A DNA stretch of 64,000 nt from Acutalibacteraceae bacterium (GTDB lineage: Bacteria > Bacillota > Clostridia > Oscillospirales > Acutalibacteraceae): assembly GCA_045602345.1 (NCBI GenBank), contig JAZSBI010000012.1:17-64016 (forward strand), in the 5' to 3' direction. The notes beneath the pieces were generated by a model. That model did not search any database and was not told the DNA's origin. It saw only the letters and a list, made by a program, of their open reading frames with translations. A program made the position numbers and the translations under genes. Shown here one piece after another: positions 12,460 to 36,327 of this stretch. The number at the start of each line of letters is the position of its first letter. The first letter of the stretch is position 1.

Positions 12460-13156
12460 ATGTACATGGATTTGCTACATGGTAATTGTTACGAGCTTAT
12501 AAAGAACCTGCCTGATAAAAGCATTGATGTTTGCATAACAGATCCGCCGTATCTGTTCAAAGAATCGGGGGGGGGGTATTATGAGAAAGCGTGATTATAC
12601 AAATCAATTAGCTGATTTGAATTGCTGCAATTTCAACCCGTCTGTTTTTCTGGATGCAATACACAGCAAGCTTAAAAAGACATATATTTATGCTTTTTGT
12701 AACAAATCATTGGTTTCTGAATACATTTCTTGGGCGCAAAAACACAAATGTAATTACGACATTCTTGTAATGTGCAAATCAAATCCAATACCGGCATACA
12801 ACAATCATTACTTGAGTGACTTTGAATACATAATAGTCATACGTGAACCGGGAACATATTTTTGCAAAGAGAAGGATATAGAGCTTTATAGAAAATGGTT
12901 TATGACTTCATGCAAAAAGGGCCTGCATCCAGCTGAAAAGCCGGTTACGCTGCTTGAGAAGTTTATAAAAGTATCTTGCCCGGATAACGGGACTGTTTTA
13001 GACCCGTTTATGGGTAGTGGCTCAACAGGTGTTGCTTGTGTAAGAACGAAGCGCAATTTTATCGGAATTGAGATAGACGAAAAATATTTTAAGCTTGCAA
13101 AAGAACGTATCAACGAAGCGAAAAATGAAAACATACTTTTTGATATGGCGGTGTAA
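12460..13156 (+). pseudogene. N4/N6 DNA methyltransferase (DPPY...FxGSGST type) interrupted by a frameshift at a G10 tract; phase-variable or homopolymer error
   Basis: 12460-12594 encodes MYMDLLHGNCYELIKNLPDKSIDVCITDPPYLFKESGGG then stops. The +1 frame (track ORF 12581..13156) carries LDPFMGSGSTGVACVRTKRNFIGIEIDEKYF. G9 would fuse the two parts. Confidence 0.75.
12567..12576 (+). repeat. G10 homopolymer inside the methyltransferase gene
   Basis: Counted directly: g at 12567-12576. Confidence 0.95.
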
Positions 13157-17623: not shown

Positions 17624-17673
17624 TAAAAAAAAATAACTTTAGAAGTTTGCAACCGGGCGTTTGTTGATTTTTA

Positions 17674-17765
17674 GTGACAAAACAGAACTATCTTTGTTAT
17701 AATAGACTAGATTTGTTCTGCAAGAGCAGTCTTAAAACTTTGTTTTCAGGCTGCTCTTTTTTTTT
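17674..17765 (+). promoter_or_regulatory. promoter plus leader hairpin plus overlapping terminator, copy B
   Basis: GTGACA-18-TATAAT. Hairpin 17714-17728 (TGTTCT-GCA-AGAGCA). Terminator arms 17723-17732/17748-17757, then T9. Confidence 0.7.
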
Positions 17766-17791: not shown

Positions 17792-18883
17792 TTGCAGGTT
17801 GTTTATGTTATCAGAAAATCAGTTCTAAAATCATTCAGTTTTTTCAATCCTCTTGAAATTATAAAAAGTGGCCGCGCCTTGCCCGTTGGTACAATCAGAG
17901 AATGGAAAGGAAAAAAATACAAAAAAATTACTCCACAAAAATGGGTTGAAGTTAAAGAACAAAGAAAACACGGTGATTTGATACCCGAAGAAAAATTTAA
18001 TGCGAATAACTACAAAAATAAGTTTACAGATCCTAAGTGTACGAATGATGCAGCCGGAATAAAACATGTTTACTCTTTGCTCGGCGAAGAAGGACGTGCA
18101 ACACAAGCAATGGTTGAAAAGAAACTGAACGAACAAAGCCACAGACTTAAAAATGGCGATACACAAATCCGTAACATGCACAATATCAAATACGATGAAA
18201 ACGGTAAATTTGTTTCAGGTGAATGGAACGAAGAAAGAAAGAAGCTTCATCTTGAAATAATTAAAAAGATTCTCACGCCTGAAAAAGTAAATGCTTGCAA
18301 GCCGAAAAACGGAGAAAAGCCTAAGTTCATAATGTTCGGCGGCCGTGGTGGAAGCGGTAAGTCTTGGTTTACTGATAAAGAAAGAGCTGTAAAAGAAGGG
18401 CGCAAAGTTATGTTTGATAGTGACAATTACCTTATACTTGATGCTGACGAAATCAAAAAAGCTTTGCCGGAATTTCAGGGCTGGAACGCCGGAGAAGTTC
18501 ACGAAGAATCTTCTTTCTTGATGAAAGAAATTAAGAAAAATGCTATGGCGCAAGGGTTAAACATTATCATTGACGGCACAATGAATTATAACGAGAAAAA
18601 GCCGGACAAAGTAAGAAACGAAATGCTGGAAGCTAAATCAAAAGGCTATTCTCTTGAAGCGCATTATATGTTTACGCCGATTCAAAAAAGCTGCTTAAAT
18701 GCAATGAACAGATTCAAGACAAAAAAAGGCGATTTTTCAGGGCGTTTAGTTCCTACAGACATTCTTTTAGGTATGCAGGATAACGAAAAATCTTTTGATT
18801 CTGTCAAAGATATTGTTGATGATTGGACTTTCCGGGATAACCAAAACTATGATGCAAAGCTTGTCGCAAGAAAAGGTTTTTAG
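17792..18883 (+). CDS. zeta-toxin-like P-loop kinase with conserved N-terminal tag
   Basis: TTG start with AAAGGGG SD; the start is supported by alignment of its N-terminus to 21762 and 46841. Walker A FGGRGGSGKSWF, IIDGTM, FSGRLVP. Confidence 0.75.
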   Translation: MQVVYVIRKSVLKSFSFFNPLEIIKSGRALPVGTIREWKGKKYKKITPQKWVEVKEQRKHGDLIPEEKFNANNYKNKFTDPKCTNDAAGIKHVYSLLGEEGRATQAMVEKKLNEQSHRLKNGDTQIRNMHNIKYDENGKFVSGEWNEERKKLHLEIIKKILTPEKVNACKPKNGEKPKFIMFGGRGGSGKSWFTDKERAVKEGRKVMFDSDNYLILDADEIKKALPEFQGWNAGEVHEESSFLMKEIKKNAMAQGLNIIIDGTMNYNEKKPDKVRNEMLEAKSKGYSLEAHYMFTPIQKSCLNAMNRFKTKKGDFSGRLVPTDILLGMQDNEKSFDSVKDIVDDWTFRDNQNYDAKLVARKGF

Positions 18884-21761: not shown

Positions 21762-24700
21762 ATGTCAAGAATTATATATACAGTTGATAAATCAGTTCTT
21801 AGCTCATTTACTTTTTTCAAGCCTAATCAAATCATAGAAAAAGCTGCTAAAGGCAGCCAAAAAGCAGAACATGAATATTTGTACAGATACCCAAATTCTA
21901 AAGGGGGCTGGAATTACATCTATAAAGGTGAAGTTGAAAAGGTTAAAAAATTATTCCAGAACCCTATTGAAAAACTTTCTACAATTTTTCAATTTGCAAA
22001 AGAAAAAGTTCATACCCTCTATGTGAATCATGGAATCAAAGCATCTTATAATGCTACAGAAAAAGACTTTGCAAAGCATATTCTTGAATACAAACTTAAT
22101 AAAGAACGCTGGGATAAGCGCTTTGAAAAACTTGAAGCAAACCAGAAGCATAAAAGCCCGGTAAAACTTAACGGCGGCAAAACAACACAGCGCATTCAAA
22201 AAGAAGTAAAAGAAGTAACAGGACAGGATAAAAAAGAACCAGGCGAATTTAAACCCAATGCTTCTTTAATGCGCAAAGTTTGGGCAATATTCAACAAGGA
22301 AAAGGCAGCCGAAAGCGATAGAAAAGCTGAAAGTGAAAATCAGAAAAAAGTCAAAGAAACATTCGATGCTTATGCAGATGTTTTGAAAAACGGCGGCAGA
22401 CTAAATATTTCAAACCCGAAACTAGGAAACGTTGTATTTGATGCAGGTGTTTTAGGTGACTTAACGAAGAAAAATAAAGGCGGTTTCGGCATAAGGCATC
22501 TTATTGCAAGCCGGTATTTAAAAGACGGCATGAATACAGATGATATTTGTGCATTGCTGTACTTGGTAAAAGATACTGTTGAAACGGCTTTGCCGCCGGA
22601 CACTGAAAAATCAAAAATCAATCTTAAAAAAGATGGAATCTGGGTCGGAATCTCAAAAGAATGGAACGGTGAAAAAGAAAACTGGATTATTACAGGTTTT
22701 CCTGAAAATGACAGTGAAGGAAATATTACAAAAGAAGCGGCAGATACCATAAAGACGGTAAACGCACAATATGGCTATGCACTTGAACACTCTCCTATCC
22801 GCGAACAAGTGGGGGCTGTCATTGCTTCTATCAATACTATAGCATCGGCTGATAATTCTGTCAAACCAAAAGAATCAGAAATCGAAGCGCATGAAAACCG
22901 CCCACAGGCAATGTTGGGCAATGACAATGCTAAGAAAGACTTTACGGAAGCGGATAAGGAACTTGCCCTTAGTCATATTAAAAATGATGCTGTAAAAATG
23001 CTAGAAATTCCGTATGAAAGAAAGGAATATGAAAAACTTTTTCCGCGTGGCGAGGTAAAAACACCTTTTGAAACTGTAAAGCTCGGAGAGCATCAGTTTG
23101 AAAGGCTTGCCGCAAAAGACGGTGGAACAAGAAAAAATCTTATCGGCGCGATGTATCAGACATTGAAAGAGCCTTGTGCCGTGATTGAAGATGTCGATAA
23201 ACAGGGCAGAGAAGCAAAGCTCTATATTAAATCGTTCATCGGAGAGAATAAGAACAAATTTACGCTTGCTGTTGTTGTCGATATTGACGGCAAGCCTGTT
23301 TCTGTATCTTTTGGGGAAAGAAAAGAAAAGCAGATTGAGCAAAAAATAAAAATGGCTGCCCGGTTCTACTATGTAGCGGCGGACAGCCCGACTATTGGAA
23401 CCGGTCAAGAACCGTTGCCCAACAGCTCAAATATATCATCAATCGGCGGTTCTGTCAAACTTAGCGAGGGTGACAGGGTTTCGCAGAACGGCGATACAGG
23501 CGTTATCACAAACGATTTTAAGAACGGTTTAGTTTTTGTTGAATTTGACAATGGAAGTAAAGGCCGTGTCAAAGTATCAAAATTGAAGAAAATTGACGAA
23601 CCAAAAGAACCCGAAACCGAAACTGTCAAACCAAAAGAATCAGAAATCGAAGCCCATGAAAACCGCAGCCGGGCCATGCTTGGCAATCAGAACGCTCGTA
23701 AATATGGTATTTCAGACAAATCTTGGAATTATTTACAGCGACATTTTGAAGAATTTGAAAACGCTGGTAGAAATATAATAACTGATACAGGCGCTATCGA
23801 TTCAGATTTTTATAGAGCTGTTATGAACCCTGATACATACCTGACACCAGAGCAACAGAAAGAAAAATTTGCTGCTACGGATGAATTTGACGCTGTATTT
23901 GCTCAAAATGGTTTCAAAAAAGTATCTGAAATGCTGATAGCAATGTATAATGATTATAAGGGGGCTACAAATGCAGAAAATAACACTGGAATTGAGCCGG
24001 GAAGACTATCCGATTCTAATGAGCCGGTACAGTCTGAACAACTTGAAGGAAATAGCAATAAAGATGTGCATAGCACAGAAAATCGAGCTGACAGAAACGA
24101 ACCTTTATTCAGTTCTGACGAATCTGGAAATGGACTTGGAAGACCAAACAGCACAAGCGACAGAGGACGAGGACGAATAACAAAAGCACAGGCGCGTAAA
24201 ATACGCGAACAGTGCCGCGAAATACTCAAGAAACCCGATTCAGAAATAACAGAATCAGATAAAGAGATATTATCTCAATATGTTGGAGCTGGTGGAACAG
24301 ACGAAGAAGACAGTTCTAACAGCGGTGTTCTTTATGAATTCTACACGCCGCGCAATGTCATTAAAAAAGTATGGCAGCTTGTTGATAAATACAATCCAAA
24401 CAAAAACAAAAAAGTCATTGAACCGTCTAGCGGTATAGGGCGCTTTGCAGAAGACAGAACGGAAAACTTCACATTGTTTGAACTTGAAGAAGAATCGGCT
24501 AGAATAGCTCGAATTCTTCATCCTGATGCAGAAGTAGTACAAGGCGCATTCCAAAAGAACTTTATGAAGCAGGAAAACGGGCGCTTTGCTGATAAAAACT
24601 TTGACAAATTCGACGTAGCTGTAGGCAATCCGCCTTATGGTAGATATGAAGGTATCTACAAGGGCCGCGGAGAAGGCAAAGAATTCAAACGTTACGAATC

Positions 24701-27700
24701 TTATTTTATGTCACGTACTCTTGATACGCTTAAAGATGGCGGTATTATGGCTATGGTAGTACCGAGTAGTTTTCTTAATGGCGGCAGCTCATACGGCAAA
24801 GACTTAGAAAAGATTGCCGGTAAAGCAAAACTTCTTGAAGCGTGGCGTTTACCAAACGGAACATTTGACAGCACTGATGTTGGTACTGATATTGTTGTTT
24901 TCCAGAAAGGTGACGGCGGCAAAGTTGATGATTTTGTAAACTACTTTGCAAATAACCCTGATCATATTGCCGGAGAAGTTTCTACACGTATTGGACGTTT
25001 TGGAGAAGAAACATATATTAAATGTAAGGACGGTGAAACTTTTGAAAGTGCTGTTGACAATATCAGTGTAGATACAACTGATGCAGAATTACTTTTAAGG
25101 GAAACCGCGAAAATAACAGAAGTCAAAGAAGAAAAGCCGAAAAAGACAGAAGCCGAAAAGCATAATAATAGAAGCCGGGCCATGAAAGGTAATAAGAACG
25201 CCGAAGGCGCGCATGAAATGCTGAATTCGCCTGATGCTCATATTATGAATGTTGCTGAATTCAATGAGAAATACGGTAAGAACATCGACAAAGAAGACAT
25301 TGAAATTTGGAAGGCAACAGACAAATACGGCAATATCGATAAATCAAAACTGACTGATGAACAAATTGAGTATATCAAAAATAGCAATCATTATGTTTTT
25401 GATAACGGCGAATTTGTCAATGTTGTAAACTTTGCAAGCGGCAATATACGCAAGAAACTTAGAGAGCTATTGCCAAACGATCCACAGTATGAATACAAAA
25501 AGAAGCTGCTTGAAGACGTAATGCCGGTTGAACGCAAAATAGGACAGTTCTTATTGTCTCCAATAACAGACTGGGCCAGAAACTACAAAACGAAAGACGG
25601 CTTGAACCTGATTAAAGGCTTTATTGGCTGGGTTTACAACGGTAACGGCTATTATTCACCGGGCGATTCACCAGTTACACAAGAAGAAATTCCACCTGAA
25701 ATTAGTTTCAATGATGTTTTGGCATTTATTAACCGTGAGCCGGTAAGACTTGACCGCGGTGAAAAAGAAGATGATAAAAAGCTGAATGACCGCTTGAAGT
25801 TTAAGAAAAAGGAAAAGAGACAGGAATGCGCGAACAGACTTTTTAACCGGTATCTTGCCGAAGGTTTAGGACTTGAAGACCAGCAGGATTTAATAAAAGC
25901 ATGGAATGATAATTTTAACTCATTCAGAAACCCTGACTATACTAAAATTCCGGTTTTTGTTGATGGCATGTCTACTCACAAGGGAATGAAAAAATTCACA
26001 CTTACGCCACAACAATTAAAAGGTGTTACACAGCTTGTTAATAAAGGTACAGGCTTACTTGCGTATGATGTTGGTGTAGGTAAAACTGCAACCGGTATTG
26101 TAGCAACTGTTAATCAGATTCAGACAGGCAGAGCAAAAAGACCGTTAATTTGTGTACCAAAACCGACATATACAAACTGGATAAGAACAATCAAACAGCT
26201 TTTCCCAAACATTAAGGTTAATGAACTTGGAAACATGTCAGCTAAATATGTTGACAAAGATTTTACGCCAGAAGAAGGCTCTATTTCAGTTTGTACTTAT
26301 GAAGGTGTTGAAAATATCAGCTTTAACGATTCTGAAATGGAAAGTTTGAAGCGTGATATTGAAACTGTTAATTTTTATGATACAGGCGACAAGAAAGAAT
26401 CAAAAAGACAGCAGGCAAGCAGAGACGAAAAGAACGAAACTCAACTTGGTGAAATGACAAAAACACGCGACGAAGGTGTTCCATTTTCTCAAATGGGCTT
26501 TGACCATATCACTGTTGATGAAGTTCACAATTTCAGGAACTTGTTTAGAATGCCGCGCCGCTTACACAACAAAATTGCAACAGAAGACAATGAAGACATT
26601 GAGGAGGAAGATGTAAGCAAACAGTCTAATGAATTTGGCGCTTTAGGTACAGGCGGCGAACCATCAAACCGTGCAAAAAAACTGTTTGCAATTACACAGC
26701 TTATTCAGAAAAAGAATGAAGGACGTAATACATTCCTTTTAAGTGCAACGCCATTCCAGAATTCGCCGCTTGAGATTTATTCAATTCTTTCATTTATGGC
26801 AAGAGATAAACTGAAAGACTTAGGAATTTATTCTCTTGAGCAATTTGTAGGACAATTCTGTAAGCTGCAAAGTGAGTACGCTGTAAAAGCAAATAAGATT
26901 CAAGAAAAACTCGTAATGAAAGATTTTAACAATCTTTGTGCTTTACAAAATCTTATTACAGAATATATCGATAAAGTAGACGGAGAAGCCGCAGGGGTAA
27001 TACGTCCATATAAACGTACACATACGCCAGAACTTGAAATGACTGAATTACAAAAGGAAATTATGGCGCAATGCAGCGAGTATATTGAAGCACAAGAAGA
27101 ACTTCCAAAAGATGATAGAGATCCGGGGTATATGTTCAGGGCAATGAACGCGATGCGCAATTGTGCTTTAAGCCCGGCCCTTGTTGATGTAGACTTTTTC
27201 CCTGATCCGGCAGATAAACCGCCAATGAGTGAAATTGTTGAAAGTTCTCCAAAACTCAAGTTTGTTTGTGATTCTGTTATAGGACAATACAAACAGAATA
27301 GCAAAAATGGACAAGTTATATATATGCCGTCAGGCGTTGAACAATTCCCGGAAGTAAGAGATTATCTTGTAAAGAACGGCATTCCTAGAGACGCAATAGC
27401 CCTTATGGCAGGCGGCGCTACAACTGATAAAGCTATGGATGCGCGGCAGGCTGTTATAGATGAATTTAACGATGTTGAAGGAAAAACAAAGGTTATTATT
27501 GGAAGCTCAACAATAAAAGAAGGTATTAACCTGCAGGGCAATTCAACAGTTATTTATAACACGCAGCTTGACTGGAATCCTACGGATGCACAGCAGGTAG
27601 AGGGTAGAATTTGGAGACAGGGCAATAAACAGGGAATAACTCATATTGTTTACCCGTTGATGTATGATTCTATCGATTCAATGATTTACCAGAAATATGA

Positions 27701-28847
27701 TGAAAAATCATCAAGACTTGACGCTTTGTTTAGCTATCAAGGCGATACACTCAATGTTGCTGATATTAACCCGGAAGAATTGAAATTCGGACTTATTAAA
27801 GACCCTGAAAAACGCGCTGATTTACAGGTAATGGAATTCACCGATAAAAACAGAAATGATGCAAAAATGTACAGCCAGCTTATTGATGTTTTACACAGGC
27901 AGGTTGAAATTGCTTTTCAGTCGGATGATGTTCTTGCCAAAAAAGCAAACGATGCTATGCACTCTTGGAACTTCAGCGTTGAAAGTCATACAAAACGCTA
28001 TGAAGAAGAAAATGCAGAAGCAAAGAAATACAAAAAGCTGTATGATGAACTTGTTAAAAAATACAAGGGCAAAGAAGACACTTTTGAAAACAACGGTGCT
28101 TATTATACCCGTAGGAACGGAAAAGAAGGCTACGAAGAAGCATTAACTTATATAGGCCGTTCATATGAGAGTCACAAGGCATCAGCAAATAATTATAAAG
28201 AAACATTGACTCACTATAACAAAGAACTTAAAAAATTGACTGATAGCCGCGAATCATGTCGGAAATTCCTTGCAAATAAAGGCATTAACAATGAAGCTGA
28301 TTGCGATGCAAAAATTAAAACATATGTTCAGTTTATGGAAACTGCAAAAGACAACATTGAAAAGGCAAAGACAATGCGCGCGCAATTCTTGGAAGAAGCT
28401 ATAAAGGATAATAAAGCGAAAGAAAAGGTATTGCCATCTTTGGATGAAATGATTAAAGACAATATTTCATCTATTATGAATGACTTGCATCCAATGGACG
28501 ATGAATTCAAAGCGCGCCGACAGGATGAAAACGACAGACTGTTTAAGAGGGGTAAATACGCTGAAACACCGGTGTCAAAATCTCTTGACGGCTTGAAAAT
28601 TGAATTCATCAACTATGTTGAAAAAGAAGCAGCAAAAGAGTTTTATCAAAAATCTTTTGATGGTGTAGCTGATAGAGTTCAGTTTTTGAGTAATGTCAGA
28701 CATATAACGGACAAAATTGAACAAGTTCAATCGCCGGTAGAGTTATTGTCTTTACACAATGCAAGCAGGCCGTTATACAGAAATAATAACCGTTTCTCTA
28801 AAATGTCAGGCAGAATCAGAAAGCTTGTATTAAAAGGCATCAAATAA
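21762..28847 (+). CDS. giant multidomain protein: N-terminal tag, RNase-like modules, N6-adenine methyltransferase and SNF2-family helicase (DarB-like)
   Basis: Methyltransferase motifs IEPSSGIGRF and VAVGNPPYG. Helicase motifs DVGVGKTATG, VDEVHNFRN, LLSATPFQNSPLEIYS and DWNPTDAQQVEGRIWRQGN. Three NRSxAMxGNxNA motifs. Confidence 0.85.
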   Translation: MSRIIYTVDKSVLSSFTFFKPNQIIEKAAKGSQKAEHEYLYRYPNSKGGWNYIYKGEVEKVKKLFQNPIEKLSTIFQFAKEKVHTLYVNHGIKASYNATEKDFAKHILEYKLNKERWDKRFEKLEANQKHKSPVKLNGGKTTQRIQKEVKEVTGQDKKEPGEFKPNASLMRKVWAIFNKEKAAESDRKAESENQKKVKETFDAYADVLKNGGRLNISNPKLGNVVFDAGVLGDLTKKNKGGFGIRHLIASRYLKDGMNTDDICALLYLVKDTVETALPPDTEKSKINLKKDGIWVGISKEWNGEKENWIITGFPENDSEGNITKEAADTIKTVNAQYGYALEHSPIREQVGAVIASINTIASADNSVKPKESEIEAHENRPQAMLGNDNAKKDFTEADKELALSHIKNDAVKMLEIPYERKEYEKLFPRGEVKTPFETVKLGEHQFERLAAKDGGTRKNLIGAMYQTLKEPCAVIEDVDKQGREAKLYIKSFIGENKNKFTLAVVVDIDGKPVSVSFGERKEKQIEQKIKMAARFYYVAADSPTIGTGQEPLPNSSNISSIGGSVKLSEGDRVSQNGDTGVITNDFKNGLVFVEFDNGSKGRVKVSKLKKIDEPKEPETETVKPKESEIEAHENRSRAMLGNQNARKYGISDKSWNYLQRHFEEFENAGRNIITDTGAIDSDFYRAVMNPDTYLTPEQQKEKFAATDEFDAVFAQNGFKKVSEMLIAMYNDYKGATNAENNTGIEPGRLSDSNEPVQSEQLEGNSNKDVHSTENRADRNEPLFSSDESGNGLGRPNSTSDRGRGRITKAQARKIREQCREILKKPDSEITESDKEILSQYVGAGGTDEEDSSNSGVLYEFYTPRNVIKKVWQLVDKYNPNKNKKVIEPSSGIGRFAEDRTENFTLFELEEESARIARILHPDAEVVQGAFQKNFMKQENGRFADKNFDKFDVAVGNPPYGRYEGIYKGRGEGKEFKRYESYFMSRTLDTLKDGGIMAMVVPSSFLNGGSSYGKDLEKIAGKAKLLEAWRLPNGTFDSTDVGTDIVVFQKGDGGKVDDFVNYFANNPDHIAGEVSTRIGRFGEETYIKCKDGETFESAVDNISVDTTDAELLLRETAKITEVKEEKPKKTEAEKHNNRSRAMKGNKNAEGAHEMLNSPDAHIMNVAEFNEKYGKNIDKEDIEIWKATDKYGNIDKSKLTDEQIEYIKNSNHYVFDNGEFVNVVNFASGNIRKKLRELLPNDPQYEYKKKLLEDVMPVERKIGQFLLSPITDWARNYKTKDGLNLIKGFIGWVYNGNGYYSPGDSPVTQEEIPPEISFNDVLAFINREPVRLDRGEKEDDKKLNDRLKFKKKEKRQECANRLFNRYLAEGLGLEDQQDLIKAWNDNFNSFRNPDYTKIPVFVDGMSTHKGMKKFTLTPQQLKGVTQLVNKGTGLLAYDVGVGKTATGIVATVNQIQTGRAKRPLICVPKPTYTNWIRTIKQLFPNIKVNELGNMSAKYVDKDFTPEEGSISVCTYEGVENISFNDSEMESLKRDIETVNFYDTGDKKESKRQQASRDEKNETQLGEMTKTRDEGVPFSQMGFDHITVDEVHNFRNLFRMPRRLHNKIATEDNEDIEEEDVSKQSNEFGALGTGGEPSNRAKKLFAITQLIQKKNEGRNTFLLSATPFQNSPLEIYSILSFMARDKLKDLGIYSLEQFVGQFCKLQSEYAVKANKIQEKLVMKDFNNLCALQNLITEYIDKVDGEAAGVIRPYKRTHTPELEMTELQKEIMAQCSEYIEAQEELPKDDRDPGYMFRAMNAMRNCALSPALVDVDFFPDPADKPPMSEIVESSPKLKFVCDSVIGQYKQNSKNGQVIYMPSGVEQFPEVRDYLVKNGIPRDAIALMAGGATTDKAMDARQAVIDEFNDVEGKTKVIIGSSTIKEGINLQGNSTVIYNTQLDWNPTDAQQVEGRIWRQGNKQGITHIVYPLMYDSIDSMIYQKYDEKSSRLDALFSYQGDTLNVADINPEELKFGLIKDPEKRADLQVMEFTDKNRNDAKMYSQLIDVLHRQVEIAFQSDDVLAKKANDAMHSWNFSVESHTKRYEEENAEAKKYKKLYDELVKKYKGKEDTFENNGAYYTRRNGKEGYEEALTYIGRSYESHKASANNYKETLTHYNKELKKLTDSRESCRKFLANKGINNEADCDAKIKTYVQFMETAKDNIEKAKTMRAQFLEEAIKDNKAKEKVLPSLDEMIKDNISSIMNDLHPMDDEFKARRQDENDRLFKRGKYAETPVSKSLDGLKIEFINYVEKEAAKEFYQKSFDGVADRVQFLSNVRHITDKIEQVQSPVELLSLHNASRPLYRNNNRFSKMSGRIRKLVLKGIK

Positions 28848-28862
28848 GAAAGCGTATACTAA

Positions 28863-28884
28863 TTGCCTTACCGGAGTAAGGCAA
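28863..28884. terminator. hairpin between convergent genes
   Basis: TTGCCTTAC-cgga-GTAAGGCAA, a perfect 9-bp stem with no long T-run. Confidence 0.5.
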
Positions 28885-28889
28885 AAGAA

Positions 28890-29288
28890 TTATAACGCCA
28901 AAAAAGGACGGTTAAAAACTTTCTGCAATTTATAAAGCGTTTCTAAAGTTGGGTTTGTTTTGCGAGGGTTCTCTAATCGCTGATATTGTTGATAAGTCAT
29001 TCCGGCTTTTTCAGCAATATCTTTTTGTGATTTTCCAGCGCGTGCTTTTCTTAGCTCAATGGCAAAAGCAACTTTCGGAGAAACTTCAACAGGATAACCA
29101 CCGGTATATTTTGAAGGGGGAATTGGGAAACCTTTTTCAATATCAACAGACAGAACGCCGTCAAGTGCATCTTTTGCCATTTCTAAGGCTTCTTCTAAAG
29201 AATAACCGTAAGTAAGAACATTTGTCATGTCAGGGAACTGTGCAATAAATTTACCGTCTTTTTCCGTTATATCGCAGTTGTAAATCAT
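28890..29288 (-). CDS. hicB: HicB-family antitoxin with C-terminal HTH
   Basis: The N-terminus MIYNCDITEKDGKFIAQFPDMTNVLTYGYSLEEALEMAKDAL and an XRE-type HTH (SQKDIAEKAGMTYQQYQRLE). Overlaps hicA by 4 nt. Confidence 0.85.
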   Translation of the reverse strand: MIYNCDITEKDGKFIAQFPDMTNVLTYGYSLEEALEMAKDALDGVLSVDIEKGFPIPPSKYTGGYPVEVSPKVAFAIELRKARAGKSQKDIAEKAGMTYQQYQRLENPRKTNPTLETLYKLQKVFNRPFLAL

Positions 29289-29506
29289 TTTTGTTTCTCC
29301 TTTAATGTCTTTGGGTCTATATTTGCTTGTTTCAAAATATCTTTTGCAAAATCGCCAAGATCATCATCTTTCCCTTTATGGAATGGAACAGGCACAGGAC
29401 GTGCAAAACCTTCTTTTACAAAGATATGGTGAGAGCTGTTTATTCTATTCAACTTCCAACCGTTCTTTTTTAGTATTTTCATTAATTGTTTTGCCGTCAT
29501 TCCCAT
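29285..29506 (-). CDS. hicA: HicA-family mRNA interferase toxin
   Basis: Contains MTAKQLMKILKKNGWKLNRINSSHHIFVKEG...VPFHKGKDDDLGDFAKDILKQANI. The start is set at the internal Met (29506), directly downstream of the promoter. Confidence 0.8.
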   Translation of the reverse strand: MGMTAKQLMKILKKNGWKLNRINSSHHIFVKEGFARPVPVPFHKGKDDDLGDFAKDILKQANIDPKTLKEKQK

Positions 29507-29512
29507 ATCAAT

Positions 29513-29541
29513 AACATACAACATATATACTGTATTGTCAA
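29513..29541 (-). promoter_or_regulatory. hicAB promoter (possibly leaderless)
   Basis: Minus strand TTGACA-17-TATGTT. The A of ATG 29506 is the 7th nt after the -10. Confidence 0.5.
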
Positions 29542-29629
29542 TGATAATAATTTTCAAAAAACTCTATCTGACACCAACGCCGATAGTTAAATAATTGTAT
29601 TTATAATTACGTAAACAAAGATAAAATAC

Positions 29630-29657
29630 TTGAAAAATCCGCAAATAAAGATATAAT
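29630..29657 (+). promoter_or_regulatory. promoter of the paralog pair (possibly leaderless)
   Basis: TTGAAA-16-TATAAT. ATG 29665 is the 8th nt after the -10, and there is no SD. Confidence 0.45.
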
Positions 29658-29664
29658 GACACTT

Positions 29665-30204
29665 ATGAACGGTTCATCTAACGCCGCTACAAGTGGTATT
29701 CCAAAAAGCAAACTGAGGCAGCTGAAAAGGGCAGATTTTATAGTCGAAAACAATCTTCCTCCAGGCAACGCTATGCCGTCTATTACCGAAAACGAAGACG
29801 GTTCGCTCAATATAACATCATCTAGAATTGTTGATGGTAGTGATTATTGGGCAGGTGCTAAATTTCTGATGAAAAGAGGCGAATTCTTCATTCTTCGGGC
29901 GGAAAGAATCGATTCTGTGTTCGGAATGGTTGACTGGTGGCACAGAAACAATGACAGAGATTATATTCAGATTACGTCTGACGGCGAAGGTACTCTTAGA
30001 GGTAATGCAACTTTTACAGATGCAAAACAGGCTATTGTAATGACACAGGCCTGTCTGCCTGATGAAACGGAAAAAGAAATACATATCAGATTCGGTATAA
30101 ATGAAGGTACTACAGCCCCCGGAATTTATGGTCTTGAAGTATACATAGGAAATATAAGAGACCTTTGCAATGTTGCAAACGTCTTCAAACGAAAGGCGGT
30201 GTAA
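29665..30204 (+). CDS. hypothetical protein, paralog A of a two-gene family
   Basis: In frame with track ORF 29656. The C-terminal half aligns loosely with 30250..30750 (for example GLEVYIGNIRDLCNVANVFKRKAV versus GVTMYKVKTRKLFDALGLFRRESV). Confidence 0.6.
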   Translation: MNGSSNAATSGIPKSKLRQLKRADFIVENNLPPGNAMPSITENEDGSLNITSSRIVDGSDYWAGAKFLMKRGEFFILRAERIDSVFGMVDWWHRNNDRDYIQITSDGEGTLRGNATFTDAKQAIVMTQACLPDETEKEIHIRFGINEGTTAPGIYGLEVYIGNIRDLCNVANVFKRKAV

Positions 30205-30205
30205 G

Positions 30206-30750
30206 ATGGTAGGACGAACAAATGTTTCTGTAAACAGAATGGGGGGGGGGTGTTAGTTAAGGTTAACGCTTCCGGCATTGACCTTAGCAACAACGAAAAC
30301 GGCGGTTTTGGTTGGGGCGGAGATAATGCAGGTGCTTCTTATGCCGTCAGAGAGCCGCTTTCTGTAAGGGATAATGCGGACGGCACGGTCGATATATTGT
30401 CGGCTTATCAAGACCCCACTGGTTTCAGGCATCCATATTTTGCGGTGCATTGCAACGGCGATGAAACATTCCTGATGCATATAAGAAGCATGAAAGTGAA
30501 CACCTATATAGACTGGAACAGAAACGATGTGGCGATGGTTTCCTCTCCATTTGCGCTAAACGCAACTTTAGCGCAGGCGCAGAAAGTCATTGTTGTAAAG
30601 CCGACTTTTGACGTAGCAAATTATGAAGTCAAAATAAGCTTTGGCGCGAGAGGTGTGGACGACGCAGGGCTTTTCGGCGTTACGATGTACAAGGTTAAGA
30701 CACGCAAACTGTTTGACGCTCTGGGGCTTTTTAGGCGTGAATCTGTATAA
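30206..30750 (+). pseudogene. paralog B, reading frame broken at a 5' G10 tract (phase-variable candidate)
   Basis: ATG 30206 lies 2 nt after the upstream stop and encodes MVGRTNVSVNRMGGGC*. G11 would join it to the long frame (track ORF 30250..30750). Confidence 0.6.
30241..30250 (+). repeat. G10 homopolymer
   Basis: Counted directly: g at 30241-30250. Confidence 0.95.
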
Positions 30751-30760
30751 GGATTTTTTA

Positions 30761-30840
30761 TTGAAGCAAAAAACAAAATGATGTATACTTGTTTCTAACG
30801 ATTTGTTTCGCAGGAACAGTCTCATATTAATGGAGGTTGT
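30761..30840 (+). promoter_or_regulatory. promoter plus leader hairpin, copy E (no terminator)
   Basis: TTGAAG-17-TATACT. Hairpin 30804-30818 (TGTTTC-GCA-GGAACA). A possible alternative stem 30816-30823/30833-30840 covers the SD GGAGG. Confidence 0.65.
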
Positions 30841-30846
30841 CTCTTA

Positions 30847-32895
30847 ATGAACAAATCGGATTTCAATTCTTTATCACCAGAAACAAAGCTTAACTACTTC
30901 AAACGTGAACTTATCAAACGCCTTGCAGAACAAGAAAAAAAAGACAAACAGATAGTAAAAAAAGCTCTTTCATTTCTTGATATTATTTCAATTCAGAAAA
31001 GTGCAGGCGGCACAACAAGAAAGCGTCACGGCGTAGGCGAGCATGTTATATGGCACGGTCAGGAATATGTAAAAGTTTCCGAACATCCAGCAAGATACAA
31101 GCCCTATTATCGTGAAAACAGCCGTGGTGCACAACTTGCGGCGGCGGCAATTGCAAAAAAAATACGCGCTGCAAAAGATATTGATGAATTGATGCAGGTT
31201 GTTCAAGACAATATGCAGCGTTTCGGCTTTTCGTCCGACGGCAACGATCCATTGTTCAAACTTATGAAAGAAGCCCGGAAAGAATGGGCTAAAAACAAAA
31301 AATCTGGAAAATCGCCGCTTAGTGCTATGAGCACAAAAGAAATGCGTAAAAAATACGGAATTTCTGAAAAGAAAAAAGATGCAAACAATAAACCTGCAGG
31401 CGGCAATATTGAAGACAAGAAAAAGGCGTTAAAAGAAGTTGAAGACGCTATTGATAATGCCGGTGATTATGATGATATTGAGGAACTCGAAAACGAGCGT
31501 CAAAAACTACTCAAAGAAATAAAAGCATCTGAAAAGAAACCGGAACAAAAAGAACCAGAAGCCGAGAAAACAAAGAACCGTAGCGACGCAATGAAGGGAA
31601 ACAAAAACGCCTATAAAGACGGCCCGAAAGACGAAGAAAAAACACAGCGTTTCGCTACTCAAGATGAAGTTGACGAAGCTACAGCCGCTTGCGATAAACA
31701 AACAATTGAACGAAAAGACATGTTGAAAAAGCCTGCAACTCAAATTCAGCAGTATGCAAATTCAAACGTTGAGAATTTTGAAGGTGGCATTGATAAATTT
31801 ATCGAGCATATGCGCGAAGGTAATTCTGATATTTCAATGCAGAAAATTGGAAACGAATTCGCAAAATTGATAAATCATAATATCGCGCGCGATATATGGA
31901 ACGAATACGAATCAGGTCATTTGAAGATTGATGAAAACGGCTTATTCAAAGCAGCTGATGAAGACAAGCTTGAAAGCGAAAAGAATGATACAGAAAAGGC
32001 TATTGAAACAGCTAAAGAACAAATCAAAGAGAATGTAGAACACTACAAAAAATCTGAATATAACAGATGGTCTGCTGAATCAATCATCCGTAAACTCGGC
32101 AAAAAGAAACTAGAGGTATATGCAAACGCAAAAATTGAACTGGATGCAGAAAACTACGAAAAAGATTTGATTGCAAAAGTTGAAAGCATGATTAAAGACG
32201 GGAAAACAGTCAGTGAAACATCAATAGGTTTTGCAGTAAATAATCATTTTATCAATATTGAGTGTCAGAAACTTGCAAGAGCAAAACTTGAAAGCATGGA
32301 AAAAGTGGCCACAGAAATAGACTTGCCGGTAGATCCTGCTGATATGACAGAAGCAAGGTCTATTATTGGTGCTGATGTTGCTCGAATTTTGAACGGACGT
32401 GATGTATACGGGAATGCCAAACAAACTTTGACAGACAAAATACGAAGACGTGTACGCAACAATCCAGGTGTAGCGCGCGCTATGCTTGTTTTTATAAAAC
32501 AGGAACAGGAAAGAACCGGCAAAACCGTTTACACACCGAAACACAGTATATGGGAAGTTTTACCAAAACTCAATGAAAACGCAAAACAGGCAGCCGAAAA
32601 AGGCGAAGGCGAGAAGAAAACTGGTACATCCGGTGTATTGTATCACTCGGATGATGGTGTAACGGTTGTTGAAGATAAGGATTGGGGCAGATATAAAGTA
32701 GAATTCCCCGGCAAGCCTGATTCAGATACAATCAGCACATTGAAACACAACGGCTTTAGATGGTCTCCAAAAAACAAAGTTTGGGTATGCTACAACACAG
32801 CAAACGGCGAGTATTCATTAAAACGTGTTGCTGAAAAGCTCGGCTGGAAGAAAGGCGATTCAAAAGAATCTGCTGATGATACGGAGGGCGTGTAG
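30847..32895 (+). CDS. large K/E-rich multidomain protein with one NRSxAMxGNxNA motif
   Basis: 682 aa. KNRSDAMKGNKNAYK at nt 31573-31617. Has a compact C-terminal domain ...LKHNGFRWSPKNKVWVCY. Confidence 0.7.
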   Translation: MNKSDFNSLSPETKLNYFKRELIKRLAEQEKKDKQIVKKALSFLDIISIQKSAGGTTRKRHGVGEHVIWHGQEYVKVSEHPARYKPYYRENSRGAQLAAAAIAKKIRAAKDIDELMQVVQDNMQRFGFSSDGNDPLFKLMKEARKEWAKNKKSGKSPLSAMSTKEMRKKYGISEKKKDANNKPAGGNIEDKKKALKEVEDAIDNAGDYDDIEELENERQKLLKEIKASEKKPEQKEPEAEKTKNRSDAMKGNKNAYKDGPKDEEKTQRFATQDEVDEATAACDKQTIERKDMLKKPATQIQQYANSNVENFEGGIDKFIEHMREGNSDISMQKIGNEFAKLINHNIARDIWNEYESGHLKIDENGLFKAADEDKLESEKNDTEKAIETAKEQIKENVEHYKKSEYNRWSAESIIRKLGKKKLEVYANAKIELDAENYEKDLIAKVESMIKDGKTVSETSIGFAVNNHFINIECQKLARAKLESMEKVATEIDLPVDPADMTEARSIIGADVARILNGRDVYGNAKQTLTDKIRRRVRNNPGVARAMLVFIKQEQERTGKTVYTPKHSIWEVLPKLNENAKQAAEKGEGEKKTGTSGVLYHSDDGVTVVEDKDWGRYKVEFPGKPDSDTISTLKHNGFRWSPKNKVWVCYNTANGEYSLKRVAEKLGWKKGDSKESADDTEGV

Positions 32896-32939
32896 CTACA
32901 GAAAGCGAAGCGGAAGAACACCAGAATAGAAGTGATGCA

Positions 32940-34703
32940 ATGATGGGCAACCAGAACGCCTATAAAGGAATTGCAGCTCGCTTGCGTGAACAGTTTACAG
33001 AAAATACAAATAAGTATCTCGGTATGTCTTTTGAAAACAAGGCTACAGGCATTGAAGCTGTTTTTTCAAAAGAAAGTCAAAAGGAATTAAAAAGTCGAAC
33101 TGATAATACAAAAGAAAACGGATTTACGTTACAAGAACATTTTGAAGTGGCTAATCAAATAAAAGAGCTATTTGAAAATGCTACACTTGAAAACACTCAC
33201 AATGACACAAAGCACGGCGAAACTAATGTGAAAATCGAACGATTCTTGAGCAAAGAAATCACTTTAAAGTCGGGAAAGAAAGTACAGGCTTGTATCACAG
33301 TTAAACATTCTCTTGATAAAGACGGCAGAATTATCTACTCACTTGAAGCAATGGACATAAAAAATGCCCTTGAAAAAACAAGGGCGAAGGGGCAGCCGAT
33401 TAATCGGACTGTCCACACATCTAATAATATATCACAAACTGGTAAAAATTCAAGCGGAATTGATGATATACGCAAAAATTATGAATCGGCAAAATCAGTT
33501 TCCGGCAATAAGAAAACGATTCATTTAGGCGATGAAAAAATTAAATGTCATTACAAGCTTGTGGAAGCTGATACACCGACGGCAAGCCATGACGAAAACA
33601 CATACAAGCCAACAGAAGGTTTCCCACAAACAAAAGGCTCAACCGCTAACGACAGAAACTATCAGACAGATAAAGATGCACAGGAAAGTGTAAGACATAT
33701 CGCTGCAAACTATAACGGTTTAGCTATTTCTGATTGCCCGGTAGTAACCAAAGACGGCATTGTTTTGTCAGGTAATAATAGAACAATGTCTTCTAAGCTT
33801 GCAGCCAAAAACGGCACAGACGGTGCATATATGGATGCGCTCAAAGAAGAATGTGAGGAATACGGCTTTGATGAAGACGATTTGAAACAGTTCAAGCATC
33901 CGCGCCTGATTCTGGAAATGGACGAATACAACGGTAATTATTCAACGAATGATTTTGCCAAATTCAATAAAGACGGTAAAAAAACAATGAACAACACAGA
34001 AAAAGCCGTCAAAATCTCCAAGACAATTGATGAAAAAGCAATTACAGATATTGCCGAAACAATGAGTGAGTATGAAACTTTAGGCGAGCTTTATGATAAC
34101 AAAAAAGCTGCAATGAACCTTGCTACAACACTTGTTACCAGCGGCATTATTGACCGTAATGAGCTTGCTCAATACTACACAGAAGACAACGGCTTTTCTG
34201 AAACTGGAAAAGACTTTATTGAAACGGCCCTTGTTGGAAGCGTTCTGGACGAAGCGAACATAAGAAGCGTTTCAAGTTCCGGCGGAAAAGAAATCCGTAA
34301 AAAACTTGTACGCGCCATACTTCCATTGATTGAAAACAAGGGTACAGGAAATGAATATTCATTCAACAAAGAATTGAATGAAGCTGTAAAGATTGCCGTT
34401 GAAGTTTCAAAGAACCATGACAAATTCAAGAACACAGACGAATATTTTGCGCAAGGCGATTTGTTTGGCGGAAATAAAAAAGACCCGTTGACGAAAAAGC
34501 TTGCTGAAATAATTCACGATTCTACACAGAAAGACTTTAACGAAAAAATGAAATCTATTAATGCCGGTTTAAGACCTGCTGCAAGCGGTCAATTTGATAT
34601 GTTTTGTGGCGGTTGCGAGTCAAAAGAAAGTATCATGTCAAGAATTCTTGATATAAAAGATACTGTTAAAAAAGCATTTAATTCTATATTTGGTGGTAAA
34701 TAA
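32940..34703 (+). CDS. large protein with ParB/sulfiredoxin-like core; begins inside an NRSxAMxGNxNA motif
   Basis: PVVTKDGIVLSGNNRTMSSKLAAKNG resembles the ParB-superfamily GxxR loop. The N-terminus is MMGNQNAYKG. Confidence 0.55.
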   Translation: MMGNQNAYKGIAARLREQFTENTNKYLGMSFENKATGIEAVFSKESQKELKSRTDNTKENGFTLQEHFEVANQIKELFENATLENTHNDTKHGETNVKIERFLSKEITLKSGKKVQACITVKHSLDKDGRIIYSLEAMDIKNALEKTRAKGQPINRTVHTSNNISQTGKNSSGIDDIRKNYESAKSVSGNKKTIHLGDEKIKCHYKLVEADTPTASHDENTYKPTEGFPQTKGSTANDRNYQTDKDAQESVRHIAANYNGLAISDCPVVTKDGIVLSGNNRTMSSKLAAKNGTDGAYMDALKEECEEYGFDEDDLKQFKHPRLILEMDEYNGNYSTNDFAKFNKDGKKTMNNTEKAVKISKTIDEKAITDIAETMSEYETLGELYDNKKAAMNLATTLVTSGIIDRNELAQYYTEDNGFSETGKDFIETALVGSVLDEANIRSVSSSGGKEIRKKLVRAILPLIENKGTGNEYSFNKELNEAVKIAVEVSKNHDKFKNTDEYFAQGDLFGGNKKDPLTKKLAEIIHDSTQKDFNEKMKSINAGLRPAASGQFDMFCGGCESKESIMSRILDIKDTVKKAFNSIFGGK

Positions 34704-34980: not shown

Positions 34981-36327
34981 ATGACAATAATTGATTTTGA
35001 CGTATTAAAAAGTTTTGCTGATAGTTTTGGATATGATATTGTAATAGAAAAGCGTGTTAATGGACGGAACATAGCAAAGCTGATAAAGCGCCGTGTTCAA
35101 GATAAAAACGGTAAAATGACAACTGTTTATGTTAAAAATGGTGAAGAAGTGAAAATTCACACAAATAGGAACGGCAAGGCTGTAGGTGAGGTTGACATAA
35201 CCGGCAAGACAAAACATATATTAGGAAGCAAAGTTAGTTTTTCAAATAAGAACGGCAAAAATCAGAACGGCTTTATTGTTGAATCAAGAAACAACATGGA
35301 TGTAATACAAGACATTCACGGCGTTAGGCACTTTGTTCCGCACGACGCTATCCAGGTGAAGCATCTAACGCCGGAAACAATCAATAAAAAAATGTCTGCA
35401 AAAGATTTTAATGCTGCTGAATATAACCGTAAATATGATGATTTTGAAGCAAACGGAAGCTATAAAGGCATTGACTATTCTCTACAAAAATTCATAAGCG
35501 GTCTGAAAGACACGCATCCAGAAATTGAGCAGCGAATAAACTATGATATTAAAAGAGCTGAATCAAAACCCGAAACGATTTCGCTTTACAGGTTGAGCGG
35601 AGAGGGCGCGGAAGCTGTTTATTCTAAAGAACGGGAAGAAATACATAAAAAGATTATGGCTGAATTTTTTACGCCAGAAAAAATATGGAATACAACGCCC
35701 ATAGGAAACGAAAAACCGAAATTCCTTATTTTAGGTGGCAGAGGCGGAAGCGGCAAATCAGCCTTTAATGCAGATGAACATCCTGAATCCGGTGTATATT
35801 CAGAGAAAAACGTAATAAAGGTTGACCCTGACGAATTAAAAGAAAAGCTTGCAAACCTGACAGAAAAAGAGGGTTGGCAGGGTTATATGGCGGCGGCTTA
35901 TCACGAAGAATCAAGCGATTTATCAAAGAAAATAATGAAACAAGCAGTTTTAATGAACTTGAATGTTGTCATGGATATTACAATGTCGAATGCAGACAAG
36001 CAAATTGAAGAATTGGAACTTGCTCATTCATACGGATATGAAACAGGCGTTCATTATATGCACGTACCGAAACAAGACAGTTTCCGGCGCGCGATGTGTA
36101 GATATTGCGAAAACAAAAAGACAAAAGAATTTGATTATTCCGGGAGACTTGTTCCGCCGAGCGTATTATTGAGCATGGTTAATAATGAAGAAAACTTTGA
36201 AAAAATCAAAAAGTATGCTGATAATTGGAGTTTTTGGAACAATTTTATTCCGTGGAAGAATCCAGACGGCACAAAAAACGGAGCTATTAAAATTTGTGAG
36301 GGTGGAAAGCAGAAGGCTTGCCGATAA
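34981..36327 (+). CDS. zeta-toxin-like P-loop kinase, paralog 2
   Basis: Contains KPKFLILGGRGGSGKSAFN, VVMDITMSN and YSGRLVPPSVLLSM. Its C-terminal half is collinear with 17792..18883. Confidence 0.75.
   Translation: MTIIDFDVLKSFADSFGYDIVIEKRVNGRNIAKLIKRRVQDKNGKMTTVYVKNGEEVKIHTNRNGKAVGEVDITGKTKHILGSKVSFSNKNGKNQNGFIVESRNNMDVIQDIHGVRHFVPHDAIQVKHLTPETINKKMSAKDFNAAEYNRKYDDFEANGSYKGIDYSLQKFISGLKDTHPEIEQRINYDIKRAESKPETISLYRLSGEGAEAVYSKEREEIHKKIMAEFFTPEKIWNTTPIGNEKPKFLILGGRGGSGKSAFNADEHPESGVYSEKNVIKVDPDELKEKLANLTEKEGWQGYMAAAYHEESSDLSKKIMKQAVLMNLNVVMDITMSNADKQIEELELAHSYGYETGVHYMHVPKQDSFRRAMCRYCENKKTKEFDYSGRLVPPSVLLSMVNNEENFEKIKKYADNWSFWNNFIPWKNPDGTKNGAIKICEGGKQKACR

Follow-up and report, generated by a model that had tools for sequence, protein, structure and literature searches.

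We analyzed a 64,000-nucleotide stretch of contig JAZSBI010000012.1 (hereafter the window), deposited under an Acutalibacteraceae bacterium (assembly GCA_045602345.1), which is part of an uncultivated myovirus-type phage from the rumen and harbors a tandem of genes, termed here gene A (slot 1) and gene B (slot 2). Our data make it probable that this tandem is a two-slot hypervariable cassette within the block of head and cargo genes, and that slot 2, with its leader and guanine run, as well as a DNA methyltransferase gene of the same phage act as phage contingency loci in the service of bet-hedging. We base this on the anatomy of two homopolymeric tracts and the logic of the reading frames around them, on the polymorphism of tract length between genomes, on the retention of the tract and on the hypervariability of the cassette, all of which were observed directly. 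In line with the features of contingency loci, a repeat of at least 7 units lies within an open reading frame (ORF), changes in its length switch the product between full-length and truncated forms in silico, relatives occur in both the ON and the OFF state, and the repeat is maintained. The cassette comprises the following elements:

29665..30204, plus strand: gene A (slot 1), ATG to TAA, 179 amino acids (aa), without a homopolymer; the homologues P0004 and P0005 have 179–180 aa and start MNGSS
30206..30256, plus strand: leader of gene B, MVGRTNVSVNRMGGG, ending here in TAG (OFF) and conserved at the protein level in P0003, L003 and L019
30241..30250, plus strand: homopolymer of exactly ten G at codons 12–15 of gene B, its putative switch; ON would be G11 or G8
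30250..30750, plus strand: body of gene B (slot 2), GTG to TAA, an intact 166-codon frame in −1 relative to the gene's own start ATG 30206

Read from ATG 30206, located 1 base past the end of gene A, gene B encodes MVGRTNVSVNRMGGGC and is terminated by the TAG at 30254–30256, as the preliminary description of this DNA had proposed. That description had further predicted that one additional G would join the two frames, and in silico G11 indeed yields a protein of 181 aa, while G8 restores the frame as well (180 aa); with G7, G9, G10, G12 or G13, translation stops after 15–18 codons. Comparing gene A with the repaired gene B by BLASTP revealed 26% identity over 141 aa (E = 3e-7), and the two proteins can be aligned end to end including their carboxy-terminal tails, so that the pair first recognized by its similar sequences and tails is best described as true but distant paralogs. 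The TAA of gene A (30202..30204) is in frame with the long ORF of gene B with no stop in between, and readthrough would fuse A to the body of B.

We assign the true start of gene B to ATG 30206. Upstream of it lies a Shine–Dalgarno (SD)-like element, AAAGGCGG, at 30192..30199, and an SD-like purine run precedes the corresponding ATG in the five further alleles examined (L001–L004 and L019). P0003, an intact protein of 179 aa with 67% identity to gene B, starts MTGRTNVSMQGIGGGD and aligns with the short frame of the window; its DNA, locus L001, reads ATC-G10-ATTTA and is in frame. Moreover, the hexapeptide GRTNVS is kept in four alleles through synonymous changes (GGA/GGC/GGT, CGA/AGA, ACA/ACG). 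We also considered GRTNVS as a packaging leader shared with other phage proteins and rejected this, the motif being unique in the window. For gene A, an alternative ATG at 29656 overlaps the −10 hexamer of the upstream promoter-like site, and the two codons following it vary non-synonymously among relatives.

We compared slot 2 between the window and six related assemblies, all of them consensus contigs that probably derive from short reads and that originate from different sources (ENA MEGAHIT, Logan and NCBI); L002 and L005 possibly represent one sample, which would make six rather than seven independent observations. The alleles were:

Alleles with exactly the flanks of the window (AGAAT-Gn-TGTTAG): G9 in L002, G9 in L005 and G10 in the window, all OFF; G11 in L004 (the same as L012), ON, with an intact 179-aa gene call
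Diverged alleles: G10 in L001, ON; G11 in L019, ON; G8 in L003, OFF (G9 would be needed)

Tract lengths thus amounted to G8, G9, G9, G10, G10, G11 and G11, with three alleles ON and four OFF. The tract is not of fixed length among the related genomes, and no slot-2 gene without a homopolymer was found in the seven assemblies. Together with the frame analysis, these data strongly support that the tract of gene B behaves as a phase-variation switch, in agreement with the initial suspicion. Gene callers truncated or mis-started the tract genes in most assemblies, which calls for caution in their annotation. In the two G9 alleles (L002:5135..5656 and L005:1684..), a change of TAA to CAA opens a third frame with its own ATG, giving the 173-aa protein P0002 (MFLQIEWGGVLVK...), a frame closed in the window by the TAA at 30231..30233; in some slot-2 alleles, two of the three tract registers may hence yield a product. 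A further NCBI protein of 91 aa on a 7595-bp contig, P0013, corresponds to the carboxy-terminal half of a B gene of the L001/L019 type and may be a truncated gene call or another disrupted allele.

The two tracts stand out from the base composition of the window. G runs had lengths of 1–5, followed by two runs of exactly 10, whereas only 0.22 runs of at least 8 were expected from shuffled sequences and none of 100 shuffles reached the observed count; the longest C run was 5. G runs of 6–9 were absent from the 64-kb window and from about 20 kb of a close relative, and beyond the two tracts no G run of at least 6 was present in the window or in the loci of close relatives that we compared. The longest A/T homopolymers (T9 at 10789..10797, A9 at 17625..17633 and T9 at 17757..17765) lie, by position, between called ORFs, leaving the two G10 runs as the only long homopolymers within genes of the window.

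Codon usage runs counter to such tracts. GGG is the rarest glycine codon of the window (6.9% of Gly codons), giving P ~3e-4 for three GGG in a row, and the three other Gly-Gly-Gly tripeptides of the window are encoded by GGC and GGT, with no GGG. Likewise, the slot-1 gene of L019 carries a homologous leader, MIGSTNGQSGGL, whose Gly-Gly is encoded by GGT GGT. The slot-2 alleles, in contrast, share the leader motif MxGRTNxS....GGG followed by an exchangeable body, and the tract is kept in alleles that are 25–67% identical. In L003 both leader and run are preserved, though its body is only 25–30% identical to that of gene B in the window, and nucleotide homology between the two ends directly 3' of the tract. 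Such retention against the codon bias implies that the run itself would be under selection.

The second exact G10 tract of the window, already noted in the preliminary description and likewise OFF, turned out to split a DNA methyltransferase gene:

12460..13156, plus strand: N6/N4 DNA methyltransferase split in two frames, 12460..12594 containing DPPY and 12581..13156 containing the rest (PF01555, E = 5.7e-27, on the 3' part)
12567..12576, plus strand: G10 at about codon 36 of the methyltransferase, OFF here; ON would be G9 in this flank

The upstream frame, starting at ATG 12460 and ending with a stop at 12594, contributes the DPPY motif, and the downstream ORF, which matches positions 73–221 of PF01555, contributes the S-adenosylmethionine-binding motif DPFMGSGSTG. 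With G9 the two frames read through to a 231-aa protein, matching positions 4–208 of the 226 of the DNA methyltransferase model NF010253 and equal to the full-length relatives P0008–P0010. Across the related genomes this tract ranged from G7 to G10, with three ON and three OFF states depending on the preceding flank:

Flank TC: G7, G8 and G10, OFF
Flank TT: G9 and G9, ON
Flank TTT: G8, ON

The methyltransferase tract is located 17.7 kb upstream of the gene B tract, and the states of both could be read from single contigs. Because the window combines OFF/OFF (methyltransferase/B), L012 combines ON/ON, and ON/OFF is seen both on the contig shared by L003 and L018 and on two scaffolds of one sample, the two switches appear to vary independently. 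Switching of the methyltransferase would trade protection from classical restriction against exposure to methylation-dependent restriction. The window contains three separate methyltransferase genes in total, at 4629..5240 (phrog_799), 12460..13156 (PF01555) and 13157..14071 (Dam-like, PF02086), and the versions of its giant polyvalent protein (21762..28847) found in relatives carry an Eco57I-type methyltransferase domain.

Sequence conservation around the cassette is high and drops sharply within it. The upstream segment comprising hicBA and a promoter-like site is covered by four relatives, with 98.6–99.5% identity to the window, and the kilobase downstream of the cassette is 95–99% identical in all five relatives compared. 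Gene A, on the other hand, has nucleotide identities to the window of 97%, 91% and 91% with no nucleotide match in L019 and L001, and the body of gene B has identities of 90%, 90%, 75% and 75% with no match in L003. At least five types of cassette protein can be distinguished, with pairwise identities of 20–35%, and related types occur in either slot, as the slot-2 protein of L003 is 48% identical to the slot-1 protein of L001. In L019 the replacement of slot 1 begins directly after the −10 hexamer. The cassette itself is located at the same place in every close relative, so that its content varies and not its presence.

A local hidden Markov model (HMM) search for the A/B family yielded exactly two copies per genome and no third copy in the window. 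From 5.8 billion proteins, a word-indexed search recovered five or six representatives of clusters, and from 1.84 billion representatives, exhaustive searching with HMMER recovered three clusters at 50% identity, in both cases all from this phage clade; a scan of JGI metagenomes for the cassette gave one locus. We obtained no match with the family profile in IMG/VR and the GTDB species genomes, and none when the nucleotides 28800..31000 were compared with 50,697 phage records; in IMG/VR relatives whose capsid is 58% identical, both the cassette and long G runs are missing. Two long proteins with Big_2 and Big_5 repeats, P0015 and P0016, were dismissed as homologues, as they gave weak matches in multiple stretches, with different parts of the profile pairing with different Ig families, which we regard as repeat-driven noise. 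Judged by these searches, the A/B family is confined to this phage clade and has no known relatives.

The genes flanking the cassette and the candidate regulatory elements are:

28890..29288, minus strand: hicB antitoxin with a HicB-like amino-terminal domain and HTH_3 (PF01381, E = 6.7e-13; phrog_497, HicB-like, E = 3.4e-17)
29285..29506, minus strand: hicA toxin (PF07927, E = 9.8e-13), ORF open up to TTG 29557
29513..29541, minus strand: promoter-like site for hicAB, divergent from that of A/B, TTGACA-17-TATGTT, 10/12, a consensus match only
29630..29657, plus strand: sigma-70-like promoter-like site for the A/B cassette, TTGAAA-16-TATAAT, 11/12
30761..30789, plus strand: promoter-like site before the next gene, encoding a 682-aa protein, TTGAAG-17-TATACT, 9/12

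The minus-strand hicAB module that had been recognized beside the pair combines a HicA domain with a DNA-binding HicB, as in toxin–antitoxin systems, and its two genes overlap by 4 nucleotides (nt; 29285..29288); hicB adjoins the A/B pair in all related loci reaching far enough upstream. For hicA, a start giving 73 aa is most frequent among relatives (L004, L005, L006 and L012), with 65–79 aa across loci. The own promoter proposed for the pair would correspond to the promoter-like sequence 5' of gene A, which is kept in L002–L006 and L019 (L019:2483..2497) along with its spacing. The slot-1 start codon lies exactly 7 nt 3' of the −10 hexamer (window 29652..29667) without an SD sequence, also in L019, where slot 1 holds a different type of gene with a GTG start; this suggests a leaderless slot-1 transcript. 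The putative late promoter of the preliminary description corresponds to the 9/12 site downstream of gene B. The region between gene B and the 682-aa gene is nearly identical in L001, L002 and L019, and we found no terminator-like site on the plus strand after gene B.

Along the window, genes for the small and large terminase subunits and the portal are followed by the G-tract methyltransferase, the Dam-like methyltransferase, a MuF/InPase polyvalent protein, Zeta and HD; next come an Eco57I+SNF2 polyvalent protein of 2361 aa, the minus-strand hicBA, A, B and the 682-aa protein, and then LPD3+ddrB-ParB, Zeta, the head maturation protease, the major head protein, sheath and baseplate. The left arm encodes SSB, RusA, terminase and another methyltransferase. 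Among the window ORFs scanned we found no integrase, repressor or other lysogeny gene, with ~17 kb of the source contig lying outside the window. Identity of the capsid protein to capsids of the Herelleviridae type does not exceed 30%, and a 98%-identical capsid gene on a contig binned in a rumen 'Clostridiaceae bacterium' metagenome-assembled genome (MAG) gives a weak clue to the host. This setting lends no support to two suggestions of the preliminary description: a moron-like character of the pair, which is followed by no terminator-like site, occurs in every close relative and neighbors head-module and polyvalent cargo genes, and expression in lysogens, of which the ORFs scanned give no sign.

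Based on these data we propose the following mechanism. Slot 1 would probably always be produced when its promoter fires, given that gene A starts 7 nt downstream of a −10 hexamer close to the consensus. As the phage DNA replicates, slipped-strand mispairing at the G runs would add or remove G residues, placing gene B either in frame (ON, ~180 aa) or ending it after 15–18 codons (OFF), the latter being the state of the window. Progeny would accordingly differ in their production of B and of the methyltransferase, with slot 1 constant and slot 2 stochastic, and the two independent switches could generate up to four expression states per phage population, a form of bet-hedging. Within a population, the tracts would probably switch often and in both directions. 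Some leakiness of OFF genomes through −1 ribosomal or transcriptional slippage is possible, but cannot account for the polymorphism of the DNA.

We next turn to the proteins themselves. As initially noted, A and B belong to no recognized family: searches of Pfam, PHROGs, PADLOC, NCBIfam and the PDB sequences with A, B and their relatives gave no match, the PADLOC search returning noise only (E about 0.03, 11.6 bits) and hence no defence-system protein model. The structure prediction of both paralogs that had been recommended was carried out with AlphaFold2 for gene A of the window and, for the B type, with the ON form P0003. The model of gene A reached a predicted local distance difference test score (pLDDT) of 66.7 and a predicted template modelling score (pTM) of 0.67 with five concordant models, and that of P0003 a pLDDT of 60.5 and a pTM of 0.62; both consist of a β-sandwich followed by a carboxy-terminal helix.

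Using Foldseek, the P0003 model retrieved soft matches led by the carbohydrate-binding module (CBM) family CBM86, MiXBM and CBM6. The gene A model retrieved ten matches below 1e-3, including the tail fibre gp52 of Klebsiella phage Kp7, CBM6, CBM32 and the K2-2 tailspike, with template modelling (TM) scores of 0.50–0.52 to the CBM6 structures 2cdp/2cdo; just above the 1e-3 cut-off were CBM61 (2xom, TM 0.54) and domain III of Cry toxins. The CBM and tail-fibre lectin matches of this model spanned E values of 1.6e-4 to 1e-3. CBMs were the top class for both models, at TM 0.45–0.54 and E values of 1.6e-4 to 6e-3 and with models of moderate quality. Viral predicted structures gave nothing significant in Foldseek, and no Pfam, NCBIfam or PDB sequence match placed A or B in a curated CBM family. 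These two models of moderate confidence suggest a lectin/CBM-like β-jelly-roll with a carboxy-terminal helix as the predicted fold of both proteins. A surface, exclusion or defence function, as envisaged in the preliminary description, finds no support in the family searches, and the predicted fold suggests a lectin-like module instead. Since neither A nor B has a hydrophobic amino-terminus, as read from the sequence, their export from a lysogen is unlikely.

A lectin-like module lacking an export signal would most naturally act on the virion or after lysis. On this basis we tentatively suggest that B contributes an additional specificity for glycans, which would be costly or selected against under some conditions, most likely in the form of an accessory attached to the virion or set free by lysis; we put this proposal forward as possible and not as the expected outcome. 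A bolder version, which we consider doubtful, is that the leader and poly-G run form a portable expression switch at a recombination site for lectin-like modules, combining a constant glycan specificity in slot 1 with a stochastic one in slot 2, crossed with the methylation switch.

The main functional alternative, in our view rather unlikely yet still deserving attention, is that A and B act inside the cell as effectors of anti-defence or host takeover, perhaps packaged like the internal proteins of T4, and that the switch avoids triggering abortive or decoy-sensing defences. The location of the pair fits this, amid polyvalent cargo genes (MuF/InPase, Eco57I+SNF2, LPD3+ddrB-ParB, Zeta) and upstream of the head maturation protease, as do the conserved amino-terminal leader preceding a hypervariable body and the companion switch in a methyltransferase of the anti-restriction type; the extreme diversification would be compatible with an arms race against defence systems. 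However, the Foldseek matches of both models point to carbohydrate-binding modules and lectin domains of tail fibres, the leader motif is unique within the window and is thus not a shared packaging signal, and the Pfam, PHROG and PADLOC searches revealed no similarity of A and B to known anti-defence proteins.

Several points weigh against the proposed contingency loci and against the accessory function suggested for the cassette. OFF states form the majority in slot 2, as a slowly decaying redundant paralog would also produce. All evidence for variation comes from consensus assemblies, probably of short reads, in which homopolymers are error-prone, and some loci may stem from one sample (L002 and L005) or from one study. 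The fold derives from moderate models (pLDDT 60–67) with TM ~0.5, and the sequences resemble no CBM. For a late structural accessory, a promoter of the sigma-70 type beside hicAB would be unexpected, and the sole clue to the host is the contig binned in the Clostridiaceae MAG.

Among the alternatives to switching at the DNA level, programmed recoding at a fixed tract would mean that an OFF genome still produces B, either because ribosomes shift to −1 on G GGG GGG or because RNA polymerase slips, with the tract setting a ratio of short to long product instead of acting as a DNA switch. Transcriptional slippage on long homopolymers is established in bacteria, the body of gene B in the window lies in the −1 frame, and the run would formally constitute a slippery X XXY YYZ site. 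We nevertheless consider recoding improbable: the length of the DNA itself differs among genomes, three alleles are simply in frame, and the G9 alleles need a shift of +1 or −2 instead of −1, so that no single event serves all states.

Slightly less plausible still is a sequencing or assembly artefact, in which the tracts are truly in frame and fixed and the G9/G10/G11 variants are homopolymer errors of short-read assemblies. Homopolymers of at least 9 bases are prone to such errors, the data are consensus contigs throughout, and L002 and L005 may share a sample. Deviations from the frame are found in both directions, though, and amount to up to 2 nt (+1 for the methyltransferase and −1 for B in the window; −2 in L002, L005 and L017), 7 of the 13 tracts observed do not keep the frame, many more than consensus errors would produce in a fixed gene, the variation extends across different assemblers and pipelines, and the retention of the tract against codon bias points to selection for the run.

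Nor do we give much credence to an initiation of B at GTG 30250, with the G run serving as an SD-like element or with reinitiation after a 16-codon upstream ORF, such that the tract would toggle only a 15-aa amino-terminal leader. GTG 30250 is the choice of the gene caller (P0001), as is a TTG just past the tract in L003 (P0014), GGGGG could pair with the anti-SD sequence via one G-U pair, and the stop of the leader ORF overlaps the GTG (GTGTTAG). Yet this GTG belongs to the G run, which entails poor SD spacing, and GTG 30250 is unlikely as a designed start because the upstream leader is conserved through synonymous changes and the slot-2 alleles of L001 and L019 contain no start codon 3' of the tract; the purifying selection on the leader peptide argues that the long form would be the functional product. 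Finally, that B is a redundant paralog decaying into a pseudogene with an incidental G run, as the 4 OFF alleles out of 7 and the ever-present paralog A could suggest, is the least credible explanation, since three alleles are intact, the OFF alleles show no further stops or indels in their bodies of ~165–180 codons, the run is kept at 25–67% identity and against codon bias, and the same device is found in a second, unrelated gene.

Switching by simple repeats within methyltransferase ORFs is well known from bacterial phasevarions, where the Mod methyltransferase genes of Haemophilus, Neisseria and Helicobacter are turned ON and OFF in this way. The gene described here shares the simple repeat within the ORF, but is a small phage-encoded N6/N4 enzyme of the β-class, with no restriction partner in view, located between the portal and Dam-like genes; it likely marks the phage DNA rather than controlling a regulon. 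In Campylobacter phages, hypermutable polyG tracts in genes reportedly change their length and give rise to phage subpopulations with different phenotypes. The likeness to our case extends to G runs inside protein-coding phage genes, slipped-strand mispairing and the resulting frame shift, whereas the host there is Campylobacter and here probably a rumen Firmicute (weakly inferred), and the genes concerned here, known from sequence alone, are a new ~180-aa family and a DNA methyltransferase, with only two tracts per ~64 kb, both in the 5' part of the gene. The Campylobacter phage tracts are attributed to Sorensen et al. 2021 (Cell Rep 35:109214), as cited in PMC12823448 and PMC10877375.

For the phages T2 and T4, frameshifts in simple repeats have been described as contingency loci providing reversible bet-hedging (Gomez, Barrick & Waters, bioRxiv 10.1101/2025.10.21.683753). 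There, the lead example is the T2 DNA modification gene agt, whose ON and OFF states trade sensitivity to TgvAB against sensitivity to McrA/BC; the tracts are A6–A9 and the consensus is ON, from which only about 1e-4 to 1e-3 of the reads deviate (bioRxiv 10.1101/2025.10.21.683753). The agt locus is a direct analogue of the G-tract methyltransferase; in our phage, however, the tracts are G8–G11 and the consensus itself differs among natural samples, and the cassette family and its two-slot layout are absent from that account.

On the side of the proteins, CBM6/32/61/86 and the lectin domains of tail fibres and tailspikes (7xyc, 8iq9) share with A and B a β-jelly-roll of similar size and are the best Foldseek matches of both models, although A and B are stand-alone proteins with an extra carboxy-terminal helix, no sequence similarity and TM about 0.5. 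The internal-protein (ip) loci of T-even phages are hyperplastic, consisting of tandem small genes with a short conserved amino-terminal leader and divergent bodies that are swapped among near-identical genomes. The tandem small genes, the conserved leader, the divergent bodies and the head/cargo context resemble the A/B cassette, but there is no relation in sequence or fold and no other protein of this phage carries the A/B leader. No poly-G switches are known from T-even ip genes.

The mechanism as such is therefore known from bacterial contingency loci, Campylobacter phages and T-even phages; new are the setting, a rumen phage not yet cultivated whose consensus is ON in some natural samples and OFF in others, the arrangement of two slots in which a conserved leader and tract precede exchangeable bodies, and the protein family. 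Repeat-driven phase variation is classic in bacteria and has been recognized in phages only recently, in Campylobacter phages and, in the laboratory, in T-even phages, and the present locus suggests that a wild rumen phage uses the same device at two unrelated genes. It offers a tangible case in which to study the frequency of bet-hedging among phage populations in the wild, the methyltransferase switch provides a direct and testable link to restriction evasion, and the hypervariable A/B family probably marks an interface of interaction with the host. Should the doubtful reading of a portable switch for lectin-like modules prove true, switching would change the cells or surfaces to which virions stick, amounting to bet-hedging over combinations of adhesion and epigenetic identity in a phage of gut or rumen Firmicutes, and would constitute the first natural-population evidence of phage contingency loci at appreciable ON and OFF frequencies in the wild.

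Besides the cassette and the hicAB pair of the opposite strand, the head and cargo block contains two proteins with Zeta-toxin domains (17792..18883 and 34981..36327; PF06414, E about 1e-23 each). A motif of ~12 aa, NR(S/P)xAMxGNxNA, usually preceded by E-x-E-A-E, recurs at 22896..22931, 23661..23696, 25167..25202, 31576..31611 and 32925..32960, with three copies in the 2361-aa polyvalent protein and one in each of the two proteins that follow, and resembles a boundary between modules, a processing site or a docking motif common to these proteins. Its fifth copy, ExEAExHxNRSxAMxGNxNA (32893..32960), straddles the annotated start of the ORF at 32940. No start codon precedes the first half of this copy, ATESEAEEHQNRSDA, which is in frame −1 with respect to the 682-aa ORF ending at TAG 32893–32895. 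The 682-aa ORF and the ORF at 32940 may hence be one polyvalent protein, either joined by a frameshift or split by error.

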